From Escherichia phage UoN_LG358_1: DNA of 64,000 nt. Positions 11,113-50,885 of this stretch are shown one piece after another (position 1 is the first letter of the stretch; every line of letters starts with the position of its first letter). The notes under the pieces are model-generated. The model was not told where the DNA came from. It did no database searches and saw only the letters and a list, made by a program, of their open reading frames with translations. A program made the translations under genes and the position numbers. Location: sequence record OK570374; one strand, written 5' to 3'.

Positions 11113-11640
11113 TTATTCACTCATCCAGACCTTGCGAGGAGCCGCATCATTACCCATAACCATTTCAAAAAGTTCTTTCCAATTTGGCGGCAATGACACT
11201 ACGTCATAAACCGGTTGCTGAATAACTCGTTCATATTCATCTTCTTCCAAAGAACCAAGTCCTTTGATGTAACGAAGTTTCCATCCAGCAAGTTTATCTT
11301 TTTCAGCTTCATATTCGGCGGCATTGTAATACCATTTTTGTTCAGAGCCCTTTGACATAATAATCACTGGGGTTTTAACAAACCGAATACGTCCTTCTTC
11401 GAACAATTTCGGCCAATTAGCAAAGAACGCTAGCAGGCTTGGATAAATTGACCCTGTGCCAAATATCTCTATTGTGAGGTATATCAATGATTAGCCCGAA
11501 GGCTAACCATCAACATCAGCATCAGTCATGATGGCAATGTTTTTATAATTCAAAGAAGAAGTTGATGTACGACGTACAATTGTCTGGGCTTTATATGATT
11601 TCATATCAATTTCAGTTTCTTTAACTTTAGCAAATTTCAT
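11113..11640 (-). CDS. 60: DNA topoisomerase II small subunit gp60 with an internal translational-bypass gap: codons 1-45 at 11506-11640, resumption at 11113-11457
   Basis: N-segment MKFAKVKETEIDMKSYKAQTIVRRTSTSSLNYKNIAIMTDADVDG ends in GGT followed by TAG; C-segment (T)GSIYPSLLAFFANWPKLFEEGRIRFVKTPVII... matches recalled T4 gp60 after the hop; combined 159 aa versus 160 in T4. Confidence 0.85.
11458..11505 (-). other. Untranslated coding gap of gene 60 (48 nt including the landing codon GGC)
   Basis: Take-off GGT (11506-11508) then UAG; hairpin UUAGCC-UUCG-GGCUAA (11491-11506); in-frame UAA; GAG 6 nt 5' of landing GGC (11458-11460). Confidence 0.6.
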
Positions 11641-12340
11641 TTAAAACCTCATAAAATTTTTCATCAGGAGTCCAACCGTTTTTAAACTGATTGAACGCGA
11701 TTTTGAACAGTTTCGTTTTGATAGTTATATTATTAACCGTTTTCCATTTAGCAATTCCGGTTTTCTTATAACTAACTGGGTCATAAACGTTAGCATACCA
11801 ATCATAAAGGGACGGAATCAACTTAACTGCGTCTGGATTGGTTTTAGATTTGTTATACCAAGGTTTAGATTTTTCAAGGGCGGCTGCTACTTTTGTAGCG
11901 TTTAACGTGTTACCAACTCCGCATAAACCAAGGTCCTTTATTAAAGGGTCGTCCGTTCTTAGTCTATAGGTTGTGTTATCTTTATCCTTGTAAACTCCGT
12001 ATCCTTTCACACCTTCAAATTTTCTTCCGTAATTTACGCCAACCCAATCTTCTTCAGTGTATTCGCCTTTCGTCAGTAATCGACATTCTCCAGTTTCTTT
12101 ATTTCTAAGTAAAATTTTGTCACGCATGAACTCAGCAGACCAATCTGAAATCATATTAACATAATTTTTCCTGGCTATTTCATAAAGTTTAGAACGAAAT
12201 ATTGTTCCAGAATTCATTATCCGGTTCAAAGCATAAGACATTTCTTTGTTTTTATGAATTTTAAACAATAACCAGTGCGCAATAAAATGTTCGCGATATG
12301 TCAATTTTACCAAATTATCTGAAGTATCTAATCCACCCAT
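11627..12340 (-). CDS. mobA: MobA-like HNH homing endonuclease between genes 39 and 60 (reading frame open upstream to the gene 39 stop codon)
   Basis: 237 aa from first ATG, beginning inside the HNH motif (GGLDTSDNLVKLTYREHFIAH); in-frame upstream codons encode ...EIHHILPRS with no stop back to the gene 39 UGA. Confidence 0.7.
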   Translation of the reverse strand: MGGLDTSDNLVKLTYREHFIAHWLLFKIHKNKEMSYALNRIMNSGTIFRSKLYEIARKNYVNMISDWSAEFMRDKILLRNKETGECRLLTKGEYTEEDWVGVNYGRKFEGVKGYGVYKDKDNTTYRLRTDDPLIKDLGLCGVGNTLNATKVAAALEKSKPWYNKSKTNPDAVKLIPSLYDWYANVYDPVSYKKTGIAKWKTVNNITIKTKLFKIAFNQFKNGWTPDEKFYEVLNEIC

Positions 12341-12421
12341 GCTTCTTGGAAGTATATGATGAATTTCTCCTTTAACCGGCGGAACCCTGGTTTTACCCCG
12401 GGAAATTAGTTTTTCTATAAT

Positions 12422-13975
12422 TCATACTAAGTCTTTTACTTTTTTCCAGACGCCATCAATAAAAATTTCGTCATTGATATTAACTACAATATCTTCACCG
12501 GCAACATTTACAGTATACCATTGTTCGCCGGCTTCAACTTCCGTGAATGGGTCTTCACCAATGACTAACCCAGTAATTGCACAAATATCAAAGATTTCTT
12601 TGTTTTTCAAAGCATCACCTGCAGACATTCCCCAGGTGTTCATCACTTTACCACGTAATGGATAACCGCCATGAAGGGCACGGTCACGAGTATTAATTAG
12701 ATAACCAATAGCAGAATCACCTTCTGTTAAAAACAAAGTTGTTTCTACTTTATCATTACCATATTCGCCAGCTTTGATGTGTTTATGAACTTTAGCTTTG
12801 GCCGCCTTTTTCGCTGCTTTGGTTTCTGCTGCTTTCTCTGCCGCTAGTTTACGTGCTAATGCAGCTTCAATAATCGGCATTAAAATAGCATCAGATTTCA
12901 TAATCTGATTAGAAATTTTCTTTGCATCGAGATTTAAGTGAGATTTAATTTCGCCCCATGGACTTGTAAGACGCTCTTTGGTTTGCGAGTCAAAGCGCAA
13001 GTTACTCATATCTCGAATAAACATCAACACAGTAAAACACTCTTTAATACGAGCTTTGTTTACTTCAATTTTGTGTTTACGTTTAATAGCCGGAATTAAT
13101 TCATTAGCAATTTCGTCAATAACATAATCAATATGCGAACCGCCATTCTTTGTATGAATGTTGTTAACATAAGTCATTTGACGAAAACCATCTGGAGAAT
13201 TACCTATAGCCAAAGAATAATTTTCTTCATCAATAATGATAGCATTTTTATCATACTGCTTAGAATATTTTTTGAAATTACTATCAACTTTTTTATTGTT
13301 AAATTTAAATTCAATTTTTGGATAAACGACTGCCAATGTCTGTAAACGGTCCAACATAATATCAAAATAAACATCATCAAAATTGTTCATTTCGAAATGG
13401 CTAAAATCTGGAATAAATTCTACCTTAGTTCCTTTATAAGAGGATTTTTTGGATTTCCAAGAAACATTGTCAGAATTATTGCTACAAGAAACTGTTAATT
13501 CATTTTCTCCATCAGATGTTGTACCTTTAAACATAACAGAGAAAATATTAGTCAATGAAGAACCAACACCGTTTTGCCCGCCAGTTTTACGCTCTTCATC
13601 AGCTCCAAAGTTTCCGCCTGCCTTAGTTTTCGTCCATGCTGCTACTGGACCAGGAATTTCTTCACCTTCAGGAGTAGTAACCATAGCCTGTGGAATTCCA
13701 CGGCCATTATCTTCTACGGTCACTTTGCTTGTGGAAGAATCGATATTGACTGAAATTTTATTAGCAAATTTAAAACTTGTACGGATAGCTTCATCAACAG
13801 AGTTATCGATAATTTCATCAATAAGTTTGAGAACGCCAGCTACGTATTGTACCCGCTTAAATTCGCCAAAAACAAAACGCTCATGAAATTCGTTAGATAC
13901 ACTTCCGATGTACATTCCAGGACGCTTAAGAACGTGTTCCTTGTCAGAGAGCATTTGAATTTTATTTTCAATCAT
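12422..13975 (-). CDS. 39: DNA topoisomerase II large subunit gp39 (GyrB-like ATPase)
   Basis: 517 aa; matches recalled T4 gp39 (GMYIGS, LIDEIIDNSVDE, VEDNGRGIPQAMV.TP.GEEIPGPVAAWT, GGNFG, GVGSSLTNIFSVMF, TEGDSAIGYLI). Confidence 0.92.
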   Translation of the reverse strand: MIENKIQMLSDKEHVLKRPGMYIGSVSNEFHERFVFGEFKRVQYVAGVLKLIDEIIDNSVDEAIRTSFKFANKISVNIDSSTSKVTVEDNGRGIPQAMVTTPEGEEIPGPVAAWTKTKAGGNFGADEERKTGGQNGVGSSLTNIFSVMFKGTTSDGENELTVSCSNNSDNVSWKSKKSSYKGTKVEFIPDFSHFEMNNFDDVYFDIMLDRLQTLAVVYPKIEFKFNNKKVDSNFKKYSKQYDKNAIIIDEENYSLAIGNSPDGFRQMTYVNNIHTKNGGSHIDYVIDEIANELIPAIKRKHKIEVNKARIKECFTVLMFIRDMSNLRFDSQTKERLTSPWGEIKSHLNLDAKKISNQIMKSDAILMPIIEAALARKLAAEKAAETKAAKKAAKAKVHKHIKAGEYGNDKVETTLFLTEGDSAIGYLINTRDRALHGGYPLRGKVMNTWGMSAGDALKNKEIFDICAITGLVIGEDPFTEVEAGEQWYTVNVAGEDIVVNINDEIFIDGVWKKVKDLV

Positions 13976-22087: not shown

Positions 22088-22297
22088 ATGTCTGAAAAAA
22101 TTAAAACCCCAGAAAATAAAAATCTGAAGTCTCAATTCGTTGAGAACAAAGGTAAATTAATCTTAGTTGGAGTTATTACAGCTGTAATAACAGCATGGAA
22201 CTATATTATCATCCCTTTCGCATTAGCATATGGGTTTACTTTACCTCCAATTCCATTGGATAAAGTTATTCATTTCATTATGCTCGGAGGATTTTAA
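22088..22297 (+). CDS. Small membrane protein encoded on the plus strand
   Basis: 69 aa with strong RBS (TAGGAGGAtttATG); hydrophobic core LILVGVITAVITAWNYIIIPFALAYGF. Confidence 0.5.
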   Translation: MSEKIKTPENKNLKSQFVENKGKLILVGVITAVITAWNYIIIPFALAYGFTLPPIPLDKVIHFIMLGGF

Positions 22298-23322
22298 ACT
22301 CCAATCTTTGAGTAATTCTTAAGGCGAAGTTGAGCCATCAAACCCGAAGATATATTTTCGGAAATATATTTTTCGATGTCTTCAACTTTCGCCCCTTCAT
22401 TTTTTATCATATCATTAATGTCTTTTTCTTTCCATTGAGATTTATCCCAAAACACAACTCTTTCGCCAGCGTCTATCAAACGCTTCATTCGCTTGATTGT
22501 GTCTTCTTTTCTTGGTTCATGGTCCATAATCCATACTCTATCTTCTTTAAATGGAACCAAATCCAAATCAATAGCGCCACCGGTGATGGCAATAGCATTG
22601 CCCAAGAACAATGAGTCTATCGGGCCTTCTAATACAAAAATATTTTGACCGGTCTTTGCTGTGTCTAATCCGTATATTTTTGTTGCATGTTCGTTTCGTT
22701 TAATTGTTATGTATTTTTGAGGGGCGTCTTTACGCAATGCTCTTCCTTGAAAACTTTCAATAATACCTTTCTCATTAAAGATTGGAATTACTAAACGAGG
22801 CTCATTACGTTCTGTTTTATAAGTTCCGGGATTAACGGAATTCACCAAAGCTGGCCATTCCATCGTAAAATACAAACGGTTCCAACGAGATTTTGGAATA
22901 CAACGATGTTTAACGTATTTTATAATAGGATGCTCTTCTGACAAACTATCTAAGCGGCTGCAATGAACTAATTTAATTCCTTCTGGTTCTTTAATTTCAA
23001 CTTTTTTCACCTCTGGTTTTGTATCAGGCTTAAAAGTCATTTTGTCCTTTCTGAGTTCTAAAATAAACTCACGGTATAAATCAGGTTCATATTCCTTTAA
23101 ATACACCCCAATTGGTTTTCCATAATCACAGTTATAACACTTCAAAAATACATCATCGCCCGTGCCATAAGCCCAAAAACGAGCTTTTAATGCGTCTTTC
23201 TGTGAGTCGCCACAGACTGGGCAGCGGCAGTTTAACTTGAATTGGGATACGTTGTTTACTTGACGAAAGCGAGGTAAGTGAGATAATGCACGAAATGCAT
23301 ACTCGTTATGGACCCATGACAT
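22294..23322 (-). CDS. 61: DNA primase gp61
   Basis: 342 aa; zinc-ribbon CPVCGDS...CYNC; matches recalled T4 gp61 (PRLVIPI.N, FQGRAL.KDAPQKYITI, LEGPIDSLF, DAGERV.FWDKS). Confidence 0.9.
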   Translation of the reverse strand: MSWVHNEYAFRALSHLPRFRQVNNVSQFKLNCRCPVCGDSQKDALKARFWAYGTGDDVFLKCYNCDYGKPIGVYLKEYEPDLYREFILELRKDKMTFKPDTKPEVKKVEIKEPEGIKLVHCSRLDSLSEEHPIIKYVKHRCIPKSRWNRLYFTMEWPALVNSVNPGTYKTERNEPRLVIPIFNEKGIIESFQGRALRKDAPQKYITIKRNEHATKIYGLDTAKTGQNIFVLEGPIDSLFLGNAIAITGGAIDLDLVPFKEDRVWIMDHEPRKEDTIKRMKRLIDAGERVVFWDKSQWKEKDINDMIKNEGAKVEDIEKYISENISSGLMAQLRLKNYSKIGV

Positions 23323-23954
23323 TATACTCTCCTAAAATCGTCTATAATTTTTTGATAACTAATATCCGGATATCCCAATTTAATTGCTAATTTTCTAAAT
23401 TTAACATATCCTATATTACCATTAGAGTTCCAAAGCTCTTTTAATTCATCGTAGTATTTCCATTGAGGGCCTCTTTTCATTTCTGAAATTATTTTAGAAA
23501 CATGTGGTCTACGTTTGCCATATGTTGCGCTTCCACTACCCTTTCTTTTTTCTGACCACATCTTTTTGGTTTCAATGGAATGTGTTTTTCCATAAAATGG
23601 GTTTCCTTTACCGGAGTAAAGACTAGATTGAGTTTTTGATAATTGAGTTCTAATCCAACTATATTCCTTATTGTTTCTGCTAGTATATTTTCCATTTATA
23701 GTTAATTGCTTAGCAGCGCATAATAACGAATAATATTGCTTTGTGTTCAATTTTTTATATATTTTTGATAACAATTGATGAACTACGAAATGTTCTGATG
23801 CTGTAAGCAAAACCAAATTATCATCACTATCTAGTCCTCCAATAGATTTTGGAATTATATGATGTTTTTCTGAATAAAAATTTAATTTAGATTTATCCAG
23901 TCCTCGTAATTTAGCTTTGTTGATAATAGAATCATGTATCTTTTGATAATTCAA
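23322..23954 (-). CDS. Free-standing HNH homing endonuclease
   Basis: 210 aa; HHIIPKSIGGLDSDDNLVLLTASEHFVVH HNH motif; YSGKGNPFYGKTHS-type repeat; TAATG overlap with the gene 61 start. Confidence 0.8.
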   Translation of the reverse strand: MNYQKIHDSIINKAKLRGLDKSKLNFYSEKHHIIPKSIGGLDSDDNLVLLTASEHFVVHQLLSKIYKKLNTKQYYSLLCAAKQLTINGKYTSRNNKEYSWIRTQLSKTQSSLYSGKGNPFYGKTHSIETKKMWSEKRKGSGSATYGKRRPHVSKIISEMKRGPQWKYYDELKELWNSNGNIGYVKFRKLAIKLGYPDISYQKIIDDFRRV

Positions 23955-23993
23955 TGCATTCTCCTAAGTGGCCTTATTTCTAAGGCCACTATA

Positions 23994-24458
23994 TTACAAT
24001 TTCTTAAGATTAACTTTAATGCGCTTACGTTTTGAGGGGATTTGTTCTGGACCCTTGTTGGTTATTGCTCCGGTTGTGGTACCAGAGGCGATATTCTGGA
24101 CACTTCCACCGGAATCACCGGCTACCATGTCCTCGAACATAGGGAGAGCATCAAATATCTCTTTCTGTTCGGATTCGGTTATATTGTATCTAGAAGCGAT
24201 TGAAGACCAAGCCGACATCATAGAAGCTATTCCATTTAAACCGGGAACAGTTGACATCATTCGCTTCATTGAACGAACCGCAGCATGAAACGGAGTATAC
24301 GCTGCCTTTTCTTCAGGGGTTGATGGTCGTTTAAGCACGCTGCCTTTTTCGTCAATGATTTTTGCTTCATATGCGTTCCATTCGGTGAATGGTTTTTGCA
24401 TTAGACGAATAAACTTATATGCATAAACGGCATCTATACCGTTTTTAATAGTGCTCAT
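23994..24458 (-). CDS. Hypothetical protein (61.x region)
   Basis: 154 aa from ATG at 24458 (GGAGGTG SD); track start is GTG. Confidence 0.5.
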   Translation of the reverse strand: MSTIKNGIDAVYAYKFIRLMQKPFTEWNAYEAKIIDEKGSVLKRPSTPEEKAAYTPFHAAVRSMKRMMSTVPGLNGIASMMSAWSSIASRYNITESEQKEIFDALPMFEDMVAGDSGGSVQNIASGTTTGAITNKGPEQIPSKRKRIKVNLKKL

Positions 24459-24476
24459 AAACACCTCCTACGATAT

Positions 24477-24686: not shown

Positions 24687-24977
24687 TTAAAGTCCAATCC
24701 ATTCCAGCACTTCAGGAACTGATTTATTTTCACAATAAAGATTAGTGCCAGCAACTACCAAATCATTCTGGTCGACATCTTCAATGAGCATCTTTTGATT
24801 CGCATTAGCTCCAGCAAGAAGGTCTTTAATTAGCTTAGGTTTTACCGTATCCCAATCACCTTCGACAAATTTAAGGCATTGAATAGAATTATAATCAGCT
24901 ACTCCCGGAGTTGCATGGGCTGGAACTGCTGAACATGATGCTACTACCAATACGAGACTTGCAATTAACTTTTTCAT
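24687..24977 (-). CDS. sp: Secreted small protein in the T4 spackle (sp) position; superinfection-exclusion candidate
   Basis: 96 aa from MKKLIASLVLVVASCSAVPAHA (signal peptide); size and position match T4 Sp; early promoter upstream. Confidence 0.6.
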   Translation of the reverse strand: MKKLIASLVLVVASCSAVPAHATPGVADYNSIQCLKFVEGDWDTVKPKLIKDLLAGANANQKMLIEDVDQNDLVVAGTNLYCENKSVPEVLEWIGL

Positions 24978-24995
24978 TATTACTCTCCAGTTTGT

Positions 24996-25035
24996 TGATA
25001 AAGTAATAGTATCACATCCTTCCATGGATGTAAAC
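24996..25035 (-). promoter_or_regulatory. T4-type early promoter (cassette family A, partial)
   Basis: gtaaac at 25029-25034; shares catccttccatggatgtaaacgg with 6361-6384 and 31906-31930. Confidence 0.55.
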
Positions 25036-38018: not shown

Positions 38019-39700
38019 TTTTCCATTACCGTGAATCTGCCAACTTTCTTCATCTGAAGATGTTGCCCATAATCCTGCGGGTCATGGTCTTTATGGCTTA
38101 TGATAAAGATATTACTATCAGTCATTCCATTGAGAATTGTTCCTACTCGCTTAATACCTTCATTATCAAACGCGCCATCATAAACTTCATCAAGAAAGAG
38201 ACAGTTAATTTTAACATTAGAAACTTTTTCAGCAATGTCTCGCCACGTGAACAGCAACGCAATATCAATACGAGCTTTTTCGCCTTGGCTGAATGACGCA
38301 TAACTGAATTCTTCGCGCCCGCGAGATTTAATAGTTTCGGTGAATTCTTCGTTCAAAGTAAAGACATAATCAGCTTCCATAATTTTAAGATACTGATTAA
38401 TCTGTTTGTTGAACATCGGAATATATTTGCTAATAATAGCTCCCTTGATACCCGAATCTTTCAGCATTTCAGTTAAAATGCCTCGATGATATTTTTCCAT
38501 AACCATATTGGATTTGGTATCAACTATTTTATTCAATTCTTCGTTAAGCGTTTTAATCTCATCGGCATGATTGATGAATTCTTTTGATGCTTTTTCAATC
38601 GCCGCTTTTACTTTTTTAGCCTTTTCTACTGTTGAAATTAAAGTTTGCTTTTTAGATTTTATGTCTTGAGCAAGTTCACGTTGCGTTCTAACGTTGCTCT
38701 CATATTCATGCACTAGTGTCTCTAGATTGGCTCTATGACTTTCTAACGACTCTGATTTATGTTTACATTCATTAATCTTATCGTTAATCTGAGTGACTAG
38801 AGATGACCCAGAGTCTAATTGTTGCATGCATGTTGGGCATGAACCTCCAGAATGATACAAAGAAACAACCTTGTTATATGAGTCAATTTTAGACTTAATC
38901 AACAGAGTTTGATTACCAATTTCAGTAAACGCGGACCGAGGGTCTTCATCAAGCACGATAGATGTTAAACGCTCAGTTGCTTTTTCAATTTCGGATTTGA
39001 TAGAACGTGCTTCAGTCGCAAGTTCATCATACATGGTCTGAAAACGAGCTATATTTTCTCCTGATAGCTTTTTCTGGCGTTCAACGTTCTCTTCATAAAT
39101 TTTAATCTGTTGGATAATTCCGTCTTTCTTTGCGTCCAACACAGAGACTTGTGAATTAATTTCTCTTATATGAGATTTATTCAATTTATCCATTTCAGCT
39201 AATGTAGAAACTTCGAGCAAGTCTTCTACTAACTTCCGCCGAGCTGGAGTACTCAAACCCATGAACGGTGTATAACCAGCTGTACCAAGCACAACTACTT
39301 GCTTAAAGCTGGAATAAGACATTTTGATAAGTTCTTCAAAATAGCTTTGAAAATCTTTAACAGAAGCTGCCTCGTCCAGGCGAACTCCGTCTCGAGTTAT
39401 TTCAAAGATATTCGGCTTTTGACCGCGCTTTATATAAAAATGCTTACCGTCATACTCCATCCAAAGCTCTACTAACATATCTTTTTTATTAATAGAGTTT
39501 ACTAGTTGTCCTTTCTTAATATCACGGAACGGTTTGCCAAATAAAGCAAATGTAATAGCTTCCAGCATGGTACTCTTACCACCACCATTTTTGCCGGTGA
39601 TGAGAGTTTTTTGTACCTTATCAAGTTGAATATCAATTGGAACTTGTCCAACAGACATTATATTAGAATATTTTACTCTATTAAGTTTAAAGGTTTTCAT
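38015..39700 (-). CDS. 46: Recombination nuclease subunit gp46 (Rad50/SbcC-like ATPase)
   Basis: 561 aa; Walker A GKNGGGKST; near-colinear with recalled T4 gp46; C-terminus QHLQMKKVGRFTVM. Confidence 0.9.
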   Translation of the reverse strand: MKTFKLNRVKYSNIMSVGQVPIDIQLDKVQKTLITGKNGGGKSTMLEAITFALFGKPFRDIKKGQLVNSINKKDMLVELWMEYDGKHFYIKRGQKPNIFEITRDGVRLDEAASVKDFQSYFEELIKMSYSSFKQVVVLGTAGYTPFMGLSTPARRKLVEDLLEVSTLAEMDKLNKSHIREINSQVSVLDAKKDGIIQQIKIYEENVERQKKLSGENIARFQTMYDELATEARSIKSEIEKATERLTSIVLDEDPRSAFTEIGNQTLLIKSKIDSYNKVVSLYHSGGSCPTCMQQLDSGSSLVTQINDKINECKHKSESLESHRANLETLVHEYESNVRTQRELAQDIKSKKQTLISTVEKAKKVKAAIEKASKEFINHADEIKTLNEELNKIVDTKSNMVMEKYHRGILTEMLKDSGIKGAIISKYIPMFNKQINQYLKIMEADYVFTLNEEFTETIKSRGREEFSYASFSQGEKARIDIALLFTWRDIAEKVSNVKINCLFLDEVYDGAFDNEGIKRVGTILNGMTDSNIFIISHKDHDPQDYGQHLQMKKVGRFTVMEK

Positions 39701-40529
39701 TTAATATCCGTCTGTCAAATTCGGCTACTATAGCTTGTAAAGAACTTGTTATGGGATGCCCGAGTTTAATAAGTTCTTTTGAAAATGTAGAATATCTAGG
39801 TTTATTCATTTTAATCCACTCTGTATAAAGCAAATCAAAATTTTGCCATTGATACGATTTTCTTCTGGATTTTAAATGAGCCTCTCTAATTTCGTCATTC
39901 TTCCAACTTTGAGAAACTCCCAATGATAAAGATTTACGATAATCTAAATTTTTAGATGAGAGTCTAGTTGCATTTAAATGCTTAATTTTATTTTCTGGAT
40001 TTTCAAACCACTCTTTAGTTTTCTTAGATACTAAAGACTTAAATTCATTTGAATTTACTCGTTCCAGGTGAATTTTTAAATTATCGGAATTTTCAAACCA
40101 TCGTTTGACTGCTTGGCTAATTTTTATTCTGTTTTCTGCTATTGAATAATAACTGGACATTTTGATTGAAATAGCCTTTGAAATTTCAGTAGAAACTTTT
40201 GAATATATTTTAGCCATTTCTTCAAATTCTTCAAAACTACATTTATAAGCAGTTTTGCTATTATTCATTCTATTAATAGCTTGCAACATTCTATAATCTT
40301 TAGTTTCAGACAATATAGCATGTGCAATAAAATGGTTATAATGTGTTAAATGCACAATATTTGACGGGTCTTTAGCATATTCTGGAAAAATGGACTTTGG
40401 TAAAATATGATGAGCTTGAGTATGTCCTTTGTTTAACTTGGTTGAATTAGTTTTAATAAATTCTACATACTTATTAACGCCTTCCCATTGAGGGAAGGCT
40501 GCTTTTAATATAGTCTCAGCGTCAATCAT
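39687..40529 (-). CDS. Free-standing HNH homing endonuclease between genes 47 and 46
   Basis: 280 aa; HHILPKSIFPEYAKDPSNIVHLTHYNHFIAH HNH motif; basic repeat-rich C-terminal half; overlaps both neighbours. Confidence 0.8.
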   Translation of the reverse strand: MIDAETILKAAFPQWEGVNKYVEFIKTNSTKLNKGHTQAHHILPKSIFPEYAKDPSNIVHLTHYNHFIAHAILSETKDYRMLQAINRMNNSKTAYKCSFEEFEEMAKIYSKVSTEISKAISIKMSSYYSIAENRIKISQAVKRWFENSDNLKIHLERVNSNEFKSLVSKKTKEWFENPENKIKHLNATRLSSKNLDYRKSLSLGVSQSWKNDEIREAHLKSRRKSYQWQNFDLLYTEWIKMNKPRYSTFSKELIKLGHPITSSLQAIVAEFDRRILNENL

Positions 40530-46971: not shown

Positions 46972-48784
46972 TGTGTTTTGTCCTATGCATGATTTCTTTA
47001 TTCTTACCTAGGTTAAATCCTCGATCAGAAGGATTACCGAGATATCCGCAAGTCCTTCTAATAGTATTCATCTTCTTAGGATTAGTCTCGCCACAAACAG
47101 TACATTCAAATCCGTTTTCAGTTGGTTTCATTTCATGAGTTGACCCGCAACTCAAACATTTATCAACTGGCATATTAACACCAAAATAATCCAGTTTTTC
47201 TACAGCATAATCCCAGACTGCTTCAAGAGCTTGAATATTTCTCTTCATATCAGGCAATTCAACATAAGATATGTGTCCACCCTTTGCAATGAAGTGGTAT
47301 TTTGCTTCTCGGTCAATTTTTTCAAATGGAGAAATTTTTTCTTCAACTGAAACATGGAAGCTATTAGTATACCATCCTTTGTCGGTTACGCCTTTGACTA
47401 TTCCGTGTTCGGCTGCGTCAATTTTACAGAAACGATAACATAACGATTCTGCCGGGGTACTATAAAGGCTAAAAGCATATCCTGTTTCTTCGGTCCATTC
47501 GCGGAGATAATCATTCATGTGTTTAAGCACTAATTCACCGATGCCTTTGTAGGTCATTAGTTCAAGCTCGTGAATTCCGATATATCCAAGCGAAATAGAA
47601 CTTCTACCATTTTTAAACAACTCAATGATTTCATCATCCGGTTTCATTCGAACGCCAAAAGCTCCTTCTTGATACAGAATCGGAGCCACAGAAGCTTTTA
47701 CACCTTTTAACGATTCAATACGAAGCAGCAGCGCGTCTTTACAAATCTTCATTCGGCAGTCTAGTAGATGCATGAGCATGTTTAAATCTGTTTTGCCGTT
47801 GACCTGAGAATCCAAAGCTATACGAGGAAGATTTAATGTAACAACACCTAAATTATTGCGTCCGTCAAGAATAAATTTACCATCGGAATTTTTCCATGCG
47901 CTCAAAAAGCTTCTGCACCCCATTGGAGATACAGGAATAGGAGAACCAGTAATCTTACGATTATTTTTGGCGCTAATAATATCGGGATACATTCGCTTAG
48001 AAGCGCATTCTAAAGCTAGTTGTTTGATATCATAATTTGGGTCTTCACTGTGGAGATTTAAACCTTCTTCAACGAACATAACCAATTTAGGAAAAATTGG
48101 AGTAATTCCATGACGACCTAATCCTCGAATACGATTTTTAAGAATAGCTTGTTGAATTAGTTTTTCTTCCCAAGATGTCCCCATACCAAATGTAATGGTA
48201 ACGAAAGGCGTTTGGCCGTTAGAGCTGAAAAGTGTATTAACTTCATATTCATATCCTTGAAAAGCATCGAATACATCTTTTTCTGTTTTCTCTTGAGCAT
48301 ATAATTCAGCGTCCGTAATATGATATCGGCGAGCGTCTTCGATATGTTTGTTGAAAGTTGCTTCTACATAAGGAGCTAGTACTTGGTCAACATTAGCAAA
48401 TGTAGTTCCACCATATTGATGAGAAGCTACTTGAGCTGTAATTTGAGCCATTACGGCAGTTGCTACACCGATTGAATTTGATGTTTCAATTTCAGCATTA
48501 CCGAGTTTAAACCCATTTTGAAGCATTCCGGCTAAATCTACTAAGCAACAGTTAGTAAACGGAAGCGATGGTGAATAATCCATGTCATGAAAATGGATAA
48601 TTCCTTTATCATGAGCATCTAGTATAGAGACTGGAATGACCTTACGGGCGACATGTTTAGAAACAATGCCGGCCATAAGGTCACGTTGGGTGGGAAATAC
48701 CCGCGAATCTTTATTCGCGTTTTCATTTAAAAGGTCTGTATTAGTTCTGTCAAACAGACCTTTGATTTCGGTTTCAATTGTCAT
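46961..48784 (-). CDS. nrdD: Anaerobic ribonucleoside-triphosphate reductase NrdD (uninterrupted)
   Basis: 607 aa; C-terminal glycyl-radical motif RRTCGYLGNP and Zn-ribbon CLSCG..CTVCG; no intron-like interruption. Confidence 0.92.
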   Translation of the reverse strand: MTIETEIKGLFDRTNTDLLNENANKDSRVFPTQRDLMAGIVSKHVARKVIPVSILDAHDKGIIHFHDMDYSPSLPFTNCCLVDLAGMLQNGFKLGNAEIETSNSIGVATAVMAQITAQVASHQYGGTTFANVDQVLAPYVEATFNKHIEDARRYHITDAELYAQEKTEKDVFDAFQGYEYEVNTLFSSNGQTPFVTITFGMGTSWEEKLIQQAILKNRIRGLGRHGITPIFPKLVMFVEEGLNLHSEDPNYDIKQLALECASKRMYPDIISAKNNRKITGSPIPVSPMGCRSFLSAWKNSDGKFILDGRNNLGVVTLNLPRIALDSQVNGKTDLNMLMHLLDCRMKICKDALLLRIESLKGVKASVAPILYQEGAFGVRMKPDDEIIELFKNGRSSISLGYIGIHELELMTYKGIGELVLKHMNDYLREWTEETGYAFSLYSTPAESLCYRFCKIDAAEHGIVKGVTDKGWYTNSFHVSVEEKISPFEKIDREAKYHFIAKGGHISYVELPDMKRNIQALEAVWDYAVEKLDYFGVNMPVDKCLSCGSTHEMKPTENGFECTVCGETNPKKMNTIRRTCGYLGNPSDRGFNLGKNKEIMHRTKHIEI

Positions 48785-49866
48785 TTTAAGCCTTTCTTTA
48801 AATAATAGACATAATCTTCAAGCCATTCTATTGTCAATAGAATTTCTTCGGGGCTTTTTAAATTAGCCTTTATTTCTTTAAAAGAATTTGTCATTATTTT
48901 AGAAGTATGTTCAATTTTAATAGTTTCTACTAAATTTAAAGTCGAAAGTCTCTCAATGTAAGACTTTTTATCTTCAATTTGTAATTTAATAATCTCGCCA
49001 GATTTAACAAATTTAGAACAGCTTCCACGATTAGAACCAAAGAATTCTTCGACTTCGGAATTTGACGCAAACTTTTTACCAGTTTCCACATGTTGAAACT
49101 TCCATCGCTGACGTCGAATTGAAGGATGTAGTGTCCATCGATCTTTTATAATATCAAGTTTTCCATTTAATAAATTTGTAATATGAGACGATGAAATATC
49201 ATTTTTTCTTGCAAATTCAGCTTGATTTATTACTTCGATTTCGCACGAATTTAGTTCATCCCAAATTTTAAATTTAGAAACAGAATGATACACTGATAAT
49301 TTTTCTTCCTTTGAGCGACCAAATTGCCAGCCAGAATCTAAATACTTTTGAACATCATCGGGTTTAACATATTTGGTTTTTTGACCAATTTTATACATCA
49401 TCGGCCATGAAACATGCTCATTTCCTTTGTCAAAATTCATCCATCGAGCAATATCTTCTTCTGTTAAATCATCGAAGCAGTTAGGGTTAAAATGCCCGCC
49501 AATTTGTTTGTTTAACCACATAGGGTCTCGTAATACGTCATTAGCAAGTTGCATTTCCATTTCAGCCATTAAAGTTTTACCCCAAGTTGGATACCATCCA
49601 ACAATTAGATATTCTTTAGGCTTTATACCATTTTCCAACATCGAATTCAATTCATTTGATGAAGATGTATAAGTCTTCCAATCTGATTCTTCAAATCCTT
49701 TTTTAGGACCGCGTTTAAACGTTGAAGGGGCAGCTTTAATTCTTTTCCAAATCTTTTTAGCGCCTACATACTTTTTACCGTCTTCAAACGTGATTACATA
49801 AACAAATCCAATATTATTTTTAATATCTGTTTCTTCAAAAACAGACCAATGACCATAATCTGACAT
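48781..49866 (-). CDS. Free-standing GIY-YIG homing endonuclease (Seg-like) upstream of nrdD
   Basis: 361 aa; N-terminal GFVYVITFEDGKKYVGAKK (GIY...YVG) motif; basic C-terminal half; ATGA overlap with the nrdD start. Confidence 0.75.
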   Translation of the reverse strand: MSDYGHWSVFEETDIKNNIGFVYVITFEDGKKYVGAKKIWKRIKAAPSTFKRGPKKGFEESDWKTYTSSSNELNSMLENGIKPKEYLIVGWYPTWGKTLMAEMEMQLANDVLRDPMWLNKQIGGHFNPNCFDDLTEEDIARWMNFDKGNEHVSWPMMYKIGQKTKYVKPDDVQKYLDSGWQFGRSKEEKLSVYHSVSKFKIWDELNSCEIEVINQAEFARKNDISSSHITNLLNGKLDIIKDRWTLHPSIRRQRWKFQHVETGKKFASNSEVEEFFGSNRGSCSKFVKSGEIIKLQIEDKKSYIERLSTLNLVETIKIEHTSKIMTNSFKEIKANLKSPEEILLTIEWLEDYVYYLKKGLK

Positions 49867-49932: not shown

Positions 49933-50097
49933 TCAATTATATAGCCAATATGTCCTTGCCCATTTCTTACGGTTTCGGATTTGAGTTTTAGTCGGCTTAG
50001 TAGAGAACCACCAGGAAATTTTATATCCATCGTCAAAATCAAAAATTAGATGCCATTTAGACATCTGATTTGATACATACTTTAATTCAGTTTTCAT
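49933..50097 (-). CDS. Possible 54-aa protein (weak)
   Basis: Short ORF with Trp-rich C-terminus; no clear SD. Confidence 0.25.
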   Translation of the reverse strand: MKTELKYVSNQMSKWHLIFDFDDGYKISWWFSTKPTKTQIRNRKKWARTYWLYN

Positions 50098-50104
50098 TTA
50101 AATA

Positions 50105-50524
50105 CTAGCTGGAAAAAGATAGCTGTTTTTCTAGAGCTCGAATATAATCCGCTGCTGCTTGCATTATATTAGCTTCATACCCATTAACACGGATTTTCGC
50201 GGCTTCAAGATGGTCTGTTATTGGTTGTCCGTCGTCAAAAAATCCTAAAGTAACCGCTGGAAATAAATCAGAATCATATTCTTCGATTTCTTTAAGTTGA
50301 TACATACCGTCTTCACAGTAAAAACACCAGAACCAACTATCGCGAGCGTTAATATGAAGATAAGGGCCGTTTTTAATTTTGACAGAAGTGATACCGTCTT
50401 CATGGCCGTTTTCTTTGTCAACAGTAATAACTTTAAAAACAGTTCCGACTTTCATTTCAGGAAATTGTTCCAGAAGTTCTTCATCGTCTTCAATAATTTC
50501 AAAAACTTTATTCACTAAACTCAT
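50105..50524 (-). CDS. Hypothetical acidic protein
   Basis: 139 aa from ATG at 50524 (1 nt after the upstream stop); track start is TTG. Confidence 0.45.
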   Translation of the reverse strand: MSLVNKVFEIIEDDEELLEQFPEMKVGTVFKVITVDKENGHEDGITSVKIKNGPYLHINARDSWFWCFYCEDGMYQLKEIEEYDSDLFPAVTLGFFDDGQPITDHLEAAKIRVNGYEANIMQAAADYIRALEKQLSFSS

Positions 50525-50525
50525 A

Positions 50526-50885
50526 TTAAATTCCATCACTTTTAGTATTAGGAGTATCAAATAATGATATTACACAATCCGGATTTCCAGTTATATGACA
50601 GCTTGTAAACAGTGCCCAACGGCTTAAAGCCCATTTACCTAAAATAATTTTAGACCTTTTGTTGGATTCTTCAACGCTGAGAGTCATATTAAGTCTTGGA
50701 AAATAAACAGAAGTGATACCAGTGATTTCTCCAGTGTCAGTAAAACTTGTGTAGCATTTGGAAATAACAAGTTCATCACCAGGGATAACACCCATATCTC
50801 TGAAATAGTCTATCACATCTCCAAGCTCATGCTTGACTTTAAAAACTTCCGGTTTTACTGTAAGTTTAAGTCCAGTTAAATTCAT
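50526..50885 (-). CDS. Hypothetical protein
   Basis: 119-aa ORF; GAGGG SD. Confidence 0.45.
   Translation of the reverse strand: MNLTGLKLTVKPEVFKVKHELGDVIDYFRDMGVIPGDELVISKCYTSFTDTGEITGITSVYFPRLNMTLSVEESNKRSKIILGKWALSRWALFTSCHITGNPDCVISLFDTPNTKSDGI

Follow-up and report, generated by a model that had tools for sequence, protein, structure and literature searches.

A Predicted HNH Homing Endonuclease Gene of the Mob Type at the 61.1/61 Junction of a T4-Like Phage

Locus and Gene Neighborhood

The analyzed DNA, a stretch of 64,000 nt from Escherichia phage UoN_LG358_1 (hereafter, the window), contains a segment with the gene order of T4: uvsX, 40, 41, a set of small accessory genes including sp and 61.1, and then 61 and 56. 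The essential DNA primase gene 61 (22294..23322, minus strand; 342 aa) is assigned from the annotation of phages STP4-a and S16 and from a weak match to Pfam DNAG_N. Its upstream neighbor is a homolog of gene 61.1 (23994..24464, minus strand), annotated in S16 as "similar to gp61.1" and matching PHROG 2086 at 1e-72. The same accessory stretch encodes a spackle-like protein of 112 aa (24687..25025; Pfam T4_Spackle, 2.8e-23), as the preliminary description of this DNA had proposed.

Between 61.1 and 61, on the minus strand at 23322..23954, lies an ORF of 210 aa that we interpret from its sequence as a free-standing Mob-type HNH homing endonuclease gene (HEG). It is an ORF of its own, outside any intron or intein. 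It starts with TTG (23954..23952) and ends with TAA (23324..23322), the final A of which is the first base of the gene 61 ATG, so that stop and start overlap as TAATG. Both the ORF with its full HNH motif (HHIIPKSIGGLDSDDNLVLLTASEHFVVH) and the overlap had been noted earlier, and the sequence bears them out. The ORF had also been called the second HNH endonuclease, which is a fair description: besides it, the window has two HNH ORFs, located within gene 39 (approximately 11.6–12.4 kb) and in the 46–47 interval (39687..40529).

No in-frame ATG precedes residue ~131, the N-terminus MNYQKI agrees with the starts of T4 Mob proteins, and TTG is the start codon of two orthologs as well, those from Karamvirus being among the TTG starters. 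Thus, the start call, which is also that of RefSeq, is sound. The 210 codons in DNA of 29% GC, together with strong family matches, place the ORF far beyond chance expectation. Its composition is foreign to the locus, with a GC content of 28.9% and GC3 of 19.9% against 37–42% and 31–38%, respectively, in the flanking genes 61, 61.1, 41, and uvsX.

At this locus, the genome of Salmonella phage STP4-a (Gelderlandvirus, Tevenvirinae) differs from the window by a single nucleotide, at 23989, in the 7.8 kb between 20500 and 28300. The counterpart of the ORF in this phage, STP4a_026, is annotated "homing endonuclease". Overall, the two sequences are 99.7% identical over most of the aligned stretches, with two short stretches near gene 39 at 97–99%, and the window has three insertions in addition to what STP4-a carries, so that it is distinct from the STP4-a record. 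Hence the ORF already bears the homing endonuclease label in public databases, and it is an ordinary member of a well-known family.

The spacer between 61.1 and the endonuclease gene contains a 10-bp hairpin with a GAAA loop (23967..23990, minus strand), the only structure retained in the centroid RNA fold (z = -3.56). The one difference from STP4-a, at 23989, falls in its stem. The hairpin is kept in the HEG-less phages S16, EnC15, PG7, and Kpn6N; it is a feature of the host locus, present with or without the endonuclease gene.

Domain Architecture and Family Membership

The N-terminal part of the protein contains a beta-beta-alpha-metal HNH catalytic core at residues 29–59 (23778..23870, minus strand) with the pattern E-x-HHIIP...GG...N.V.LT..EH...H, delineated from the family alignment, PDB sequences, and an AF2 model. 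In the alignment of 50 family members, E29, H31, H32, P35, G40, N46, L50, E54, H55, H59, and L62 are invariant. Against Pfam HNH the protein scores 21.0 bits, slightly short of the gathering cut-off of 21.4. A PDB sequence search gave only short matches to the motif (E 0.01–0.1), among them the HNH modules of McrA and a group II intron maturase. The AF2 model (pLDDT 89 for the whole protein) places a beta-hairpin and a helix at the motif, with strands at residues 29–32 and 47–50 and the helix at 52–65 (pLDDT 94–98), followed by helical modules. By its motif the protein is an HNH (His-Me finger) nuclease, and DNA cleavage is its predicted activity.

The core is followed by two tandem NUMOD3-type units at residues ~115–162 (23469..23612, minus strand), GKGNPFYGKTHSIETKKMWSEKRKG and SGSATYGKRRPHVSKIISEMKRG, which are predicted to bind DNA. 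The first was detected by Pfam NUMOD3 at residues 114–131 (25.4 bits against a cut-off of 20.4). The second is degenerate and was recognized by reading the sequence; both units are kept in orthologs. What had been described as a glycine-rich DNA-binding-type repeat can thus be named as this tandem pair. The remainder, residues ~163–210 (23325..23468, minus strand), forms a C-terminal helical domain with helices at 163–177, 183–192, and 201–209 in the AF2 model (pLDDT 92–96). The domain has no Pfam match, and it is common to T4 MobD, the BLASTP alignment with which reaches residue 207, and to the HNH ORF of the window located between genes 46 and 47. A DNA-binding role is presumed for it.

Several lines of comparison place the protein in the T4 Mob family (HNH plus NUMOD3), an assignment based on sequence and on modeled structure. 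The ORF matches PHROG 655 ("homing endonuclease") at 5e-52. Among T4 proteins, the best BLASTP match is MobD, with 34% identity over residues 1–207 (E 1.4e-29), and the other Mob matches are MobB (8e-26), MobE (1e-21), and MobC (3e-15). In BFVD, the structures matched by the AF2 model are phage HNH homing endonucleases, with T4 MobB (3.7e-8) and MobC (3.2e-6) among them. Fold searches with this model against the PDB gave no informative match. A scan of IMG/VR returned only distant relatives that have the N-terminal HNH domain in common, with no orthologs among them, and did not clarify the insertion site. The GIY-YIG label given to the STP4-a protein in the literature (PMC9960720) is not upheld by Pfam and PHROG scans, which give HNH and NUMOD3 and no GIY-YIG family. 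By contrast, another ORF of the window (48781..49866) matches SegE_GIY-YIG at 2.3e-33.

Translation and Transcription Signals

Alignment of STP4-a-type and HEG-less junctions reveals how the insertion is fitted into the expression signals of the locus. A GGAG element (23961..23964, minus strand), which is the Shine-Dalgarno sequence of gene 61 in HEG-less phages, precedes the TTG by 6 nt and is here used by the endonuclease ORF. A putative substitute for gene 61 lies within the last codons of the endonuclease itself, TTT AGG AGA GTA TAA (F-R-R-V-stop), in which AGGAGAG (23327..23333, minus strand) stands 6 nt before the primase ATG. An equivalent purine-rich element is present at the 3' end of every ortholog, in the form of AGGAGAG, AGGAGGA, AAGGGAGAA, or AGAGGTGGA. 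Judging by its sequence and position, AGGAGAG may function as the ribosome-binding site of gene 61.

T4 late (TATAAATA) and MotA-box motifs were not found between genes 41 and 61 on the strand that is transcribed. Promoter-like (sigma-70-like) sites did not exceed the shuffled background (11 vs. 11.6). Therefore, the endonuclease gene is treated here as a promoter-less cassette. Both promoter-less Mob cassettes (mobC, mobD, and mobE) and embedded signals for downstream genes have been described (PMC2988022). The RNA fold of the junction between the HEG and gene 61 was not significant (z -1.7), so no regulatory hairpin is claimed there.

Presence and Absence at the 61.1/61 Junction

In nine other Gelderlandvirus phages (S16, UTK0003, AKM_NP4, STML-198, Melville, ABTNLPp2, CGG4-1, SEA1, and CF-SP2) the 633 bp are absent, and their flanks are 90–99% identical to the window. 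The gap was placed at 23323..23955, exactly 633 bp, in all four HEG-less phages that were aligned (S16, STML-198, CGG4-1, and CF-SP2). The HEG-less Gelderlandvirus phages have an uninterrupted 61.1–61 spacer of 38 nt with the hairpin and the GGAG element. T4 likewise has 61.1 and 61 without any gene between them.

A tblastn search with the endonuclease identified relatives in 1093 phage records. The closest of them, with 49–63% amino acid identity, are all located at the 61.1/61 junction and overlap gene 61 by stop and start codons. These same-junction orthologs, which share the domain layout of the protein described here, come from vB_KpnM_5N (gp133) in Jiaodavirus, from KMB19, Entb_43, and VPA32 in Karamvirus, and from PEi20 and PEi26 in Kanagawavirus, where the gene is annotated "mobE". 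Two metagenome contigs encode proteins with 59–60% identity in the same 61.1/61 arrangement. The gene from the Klebsiella phage Kpn5N has previously been reported upstream of the primase gene, with 63% identity to the STP4-a protein YP_009126235.2 (PMC9960720). Occurrence within genera is sporadic: among records with at least 95% identity, the ortholog was found in one of at least 28 in Jiaodavirus and in three of approximately 31 in Karamvirus. In an index of 153 billion gene positions, the exact protein of the window was found on one contig only, the genome of STP4-a (in two samples).

All seven orthologous ORFs are intact. Because dS between STP4-a and its orthologs is saturated (above 2), dN/dS could be estimated for two ortholog pairs only, and the values, ~0.08 for 5N vs. 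L025 and ~0.22 for KMB19 vs. L024, indicate purifying selection on the endonuclease protein.

A sporadic, precise, and site-specific insertion of foreign composition is the classical hallmark of homing endonuclease genes. The preliminary description had suggested a candidate mobile HNH gene in the 41–61 accessory stretch and a synteny comparison at this junction with T4 and its relatives. The comparison revealed no conserved core gene at this position, which is empty in T4 and in the nine Gelderlandvirus phages and occupied only sporadically in three other genera. Together with the match to the Mob family, this pattern supports a probable mobile element.

Changes at the Start of Gene 61

The window differs from S16 by 63 SNPs over 7168 aligned nt, and these are unevenly distributed. 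Six of the seven differences in gene 61 are located in its first 33 nt (23290..23322, minus strand), five of them silent and one resulting in F8Y, and two further SNPs at 23956–23957 lie just upstream of the endonuclease ORF. Thus, eight of the 63 SNPs fall within 70 nt, at most 35 nt from the insertion (P ~2e-7). The locus has no denser cluster, and the gene 61 part of this one is a candidate resistant target or co-conversion tract. The HEG-less allele of S16 carries ATGTCTTGGGTTCACAAT.

In two other genera, similar comparisons reveal parallel changes, clustered at the same place. Jiaodavirus 5N is 99.8% identical to its HEG-less sibling Kpn6N, and near the insertion the only change is one codon (3 nt) added to gene 61 after ATGTCA. 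In KMB19, compared with the HEG-less EnC15, gene 61 is changed at positions +14, +17, +20, and +23. Outside Gelderlandvirus, gp61 of the phages with orthologs is extended by one residue, the second or third (MSSW, MSTW, or MASW vs. MSW). Hence two forms of the carrier allele can be distinguished: in the STP4-a type the length of gene 61 is unchanged and the changes are silent ones, whereas the 5N, Karamvirus, and Kanagawavirus carriers have one codon added. The HEG-less alleles of three genera have a common core, GGAGAATAT(A)ATGTC(A/T)TGGGT(T/C)(C/G)A(C/T)AA(C/T)GA(A/G)TT.

That flank differences cluster within ~33 nt from the start of gene 61 suggests a target at the translation-start region of the primase gene. 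The simplest reading of these alleles is that the enzyme recognizes this region and that the carriers hold altered sites. However, the HEG-less phage CGG4-1 shares the 5' allele of gene 61 found in the window, so that the clustered substitutions could be ordinary recombined polymorphism and not an immunity change. In addition, free-standing phage endonucleases often cut hundreds of base pairs from their insertion sites (PMC2988022), and the target site suggested here may for this reason be wrong.

Proposed Homing Cycle and Alternative Explanations

Based on these observations, the ORF is most probably a free-standing and intact member of the T4 Mob family of homing endonuclease genes. It is inserted between 61.1 and 61 and would nick or cut gene 61 of HEG-less phages and spread by recombinational repair. 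In such a cycle, the gene, having no promoter of its own, would be transcribed with the early uvsX-40-41-61 stretch and translated weakly from its TTG with the ribosome-binding site that serves the primase in HEG-less phages. The NUMOD3 repeats and the C-terminal helical domain would bind an extended DNA site, and in a co-infecting relative the HNH active site would nick or cut the HEG-less allele, most likely in the translation-start region and the first ~10 codons of gene 61. Phage recombination repair with the HEG-bearing genome as a template would then transfer the gene, along with a few bases on its flanks, to the cut genome. Altered sequence at the beginning of gene 61 (silent substitutions in the window, one added codon in other genera) would protect the carrier. 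Expression of the essential primase would be maintained by a new ribosome-binding site, provided by the end of the endonuclease ORF.

Another scenario is a stranded or decaying homing endonuclease, a past invader of the STP4-a lineage that is now a passenger without site-specific activity or without susceptible targets. We consider it improbable. The occurrence of the exact protein on a single contig would fit a stranded gene, but S16-type HEG-less alleles are common in the same genus and, therefore, targets exist. The TTG start implies low expression; however, the Karamvirus orthologs also start with TTG, which makes this codon look conserved and not a mark of decay. Decay after fixation is predicted by the homing cycle, and T4 itself has defunct Mob and I-TevIII genes, but the ORF considered here is full length compared with all orthologs, has no frameshift or premature stop, and keeps every invariant HNH residue, and its orthologs have dN/dS of about 0.08–0.22, as expected under purifying selection. 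Less probable still is a co-opted nuclease that mainly benefits the phage, either excluding co-infecting relatives by cutting their primase gene or tuning the primase by translational coupling. In its favor, the overlap with gene 61 and the embedded putative ribosome-binding site are kept in all orthologs, the protein is under purifying selection, and T-even homing endonucleases do cause marker exclusion of relatives (PMC2988022). Against it, the gene is dispensable, being absent from almost every close relative, where the primase is expressed from the same upstream site; competitor exclusion is the same molecular act as homing and adds no separate mechanism; and no evidence points to a distinct function.

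Returning to the active homing endonuclease, the observations may be joined into a more specific picture, which we hold tentatively and consider somewhat more apt to fail than to hold as a whole. The gene would represent a distinct, primase-specific Mob lineage whose recognition site comprises the gene 61 ribosome-binding site, the start codon, and the first ~10 codons. Carriers would escape self-cutting by insertion of one codon after Met-Ser in three genera or, in the STP4-a type, by silent substitutions grouped in a block, and the end of the ORF would have been shaped into a ribosome-binding site for the primase. The enzyme would then cut beside its own insertion point, as intron-encoded enzymes do and unlike most free-standing phage endonucleases, and would bias the outcome of co-infection between S16-type and STP4-a-type phages.

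The general understanding of these elements is unchanged: the gene was already annotated, and the position of the Klebsiella phage ortholog upstream of the primase gene was already noted. What is added here is a precise map of presence and absence, the observation that one and the same site recurs across four genera, and a prediction of the target that is open to testing. The locus provides a clean natural case of intronless homing in T4-like phages, with one cassette of 633 bp separating near-identical genomes. The 61.1/61 site has been invaded in four genera, and the start of the primase gene becomes a concrete candidate target for a Mob lineage whose nearest T4 relative is MobD. There is also a practical side: phages of the S16 and STP4-a types are under consideration for the biocontrol of Salmonella, and endonucleases of this kind can distort inheritance and cause marker exclusion in mixtures of related phages.

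Comparison with Known Homing Endonucleases

The closest T4 relative, MobD (NP_049710), has the same N-terminal domain (MNYxK...HHIIP...GG.D..N.VLLT..EH...H), a basic repeat region, and the same C-terminal domain (...W..YD.L..LW......F....KLGYP...Y..I...F). It is also a promoter-less free-standing cassette (PMC2988022). MobD differs in length (259 aa vs. 210) and in its insertion site, which is between nrdC.11 and mobD.1 and not between 61.1 and 61. Its activity is listed as "ND", with no known target (PMC2988022). MobD thus gives no mechanistic detail.

The likeness to MobE concerns the N-terminal HNH domain (45% identity over 82 aa, E 1e-21) and the setting of the gene: MobE is also free-standing between two essential genes, needs upstream transcription, and has a stop/start overlap with a neighbor. 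To our knowledge, it is the only characterized Mob endonuclease. T4 MobE makes an HNH-dependent, strand-specific nick in nrdB of T2 and is preferentially inherited via double-strand-break-repair pathways (PMC2790892). Its target is thus the adjacent essential gene, and it spreads by gene conversion (PMC2790892); the same is presumed for the endonuclease described here. MobE differs in its smaller size (141 aa), in having no C-terminal domain, and in its location between nrdA and nrdB, of which it nicks nrdB. Moreover, it overlaps the upstream gene, whereas the endonuclease of the window overlaps the downstream gene, its presumed target.

A third system, I-HmuI from Bacillus phage SPO1, is an intron-encoded HNH nicking endonuclease with a solved DNA complex, in which the enzyme acts as a monomer and nicks one strand. 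I-HmuI was absent from the matches of the PDB sequence search and from the fold-search matches listed, and it is intron-encoded whereas the endonuclease considered here is free-standing; we take the resemblance as a lead. The layout of I-HmuI comprises an N-terminal HNH nuclease, extended modular DNA-binding elements, and a C-terminal helix-turn-helix. This is likely the working model for Mob proteins.

Distribution of endonuclease genes in Gelderlandvirus

Among Gelderlandvirus genomes that are about 99% identical, endonuclease genes assort independently of one another. The window unites three inserts, one in gene 39 of the type found in phage S16, one at gene 61 of the type found in Salmonella phage STP4-a, and one between genes 46 and 47 of the type found in phage Melville. 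The same combination of endonuclease genes was found in no record of the phage collection.

The 46/47 insert is a 280-aa HNH-type ORF on the minus strand (39687..40529), which lies between the two recombination nuclease genes and overlaps both of them. It is also found in Melville, where it is annotated as a 'MobD-like homing endonuclease', and in CF-SP2 and SEA1, and is missing from STP4-a, S16, CGG4-1, and STML-198. Its C-terminus is similar to that of the gene 61 endonuclease, the 210-aa product of the insert between 61.1 and the primase gene 61 (23322..23954, minus strand).

The STP4-a protein YP_009126235.2 was described as a GIY-YIG family homing endonuclease in the Kpn5N paper (PMC9960720). 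This assignment is contradicted by domain scans of the gene 61 endonuclease, which detected HNH and NUMOD3 domains and found no GIY-YIG domain.

A SegE-like GIY-YIG endonuclease is encoded elsewhere in the window, by a 361-aa ORF immediately upstream of nrdD (48781..49866, minus strand; Pfam PF19835, 2.3e-33), and the STP4-a annotation for this ORF is likewise 'homing endonuclease'. Near it, at 50031..50560, is a segment with a PinA-like (Lon protease inhibitor) ORF (PF10465, 6e-48). No counterpart of this segment, roughly 450 bp, was aligned in the STP4-a record.

Sequence variation around gene 61

Over 7.8 kb, the sole difference between the window and STP4-a is at position 23989. On the transcribed strand, TATAAT becomes TATAGT through this difference, which also lengthens the hairpin in the intergenic region ahead of the endonuclease gene, so that its stem has 10 perfect pairs capped by a GAAA loop.

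In the first 36 nt of gene 61, CGG4-1, which lacks the homing endonuclease gene, has the same allele as the window, which carries it; outside this 5' allele, the two sequences are only about 94.5% identical. The CGG4-1 allele is possibly a resistant allele that already existed beforehand; it may also be a trace left by an earlier loss of the endonuclease gene, or may reflect kinship with the donor lineage.

Between genes 61 and 56, a 69-aa ORF (22088..22297) with hydrophobic stretches is encoded on the opposite strand, as one of the few plus-strand genes of the early region. It matches PHROG 2024 (2.4e-24), a family of unknown function, and is kept in S16 and other Gelderlandvirus phages.

Insertion in gene 39

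The gene 39 locus (topoisomerase II large subunit; 11113..13975) is broken by an HNH endonuclease ORF on the minus strand (about 11627..12421). One of the two resulting parts, at 12422..13975, encodes 517 aa; the other, at 11113..11487, is the C-terminal one. S16, UTK0003, and AKM_NP4 share the insertion at 97.5% identity; STP4-a is devoid of it, and gene 39 there is a single ORF. In splitting gene 39, the HNH ORF of the window is similar to mobA of T4.
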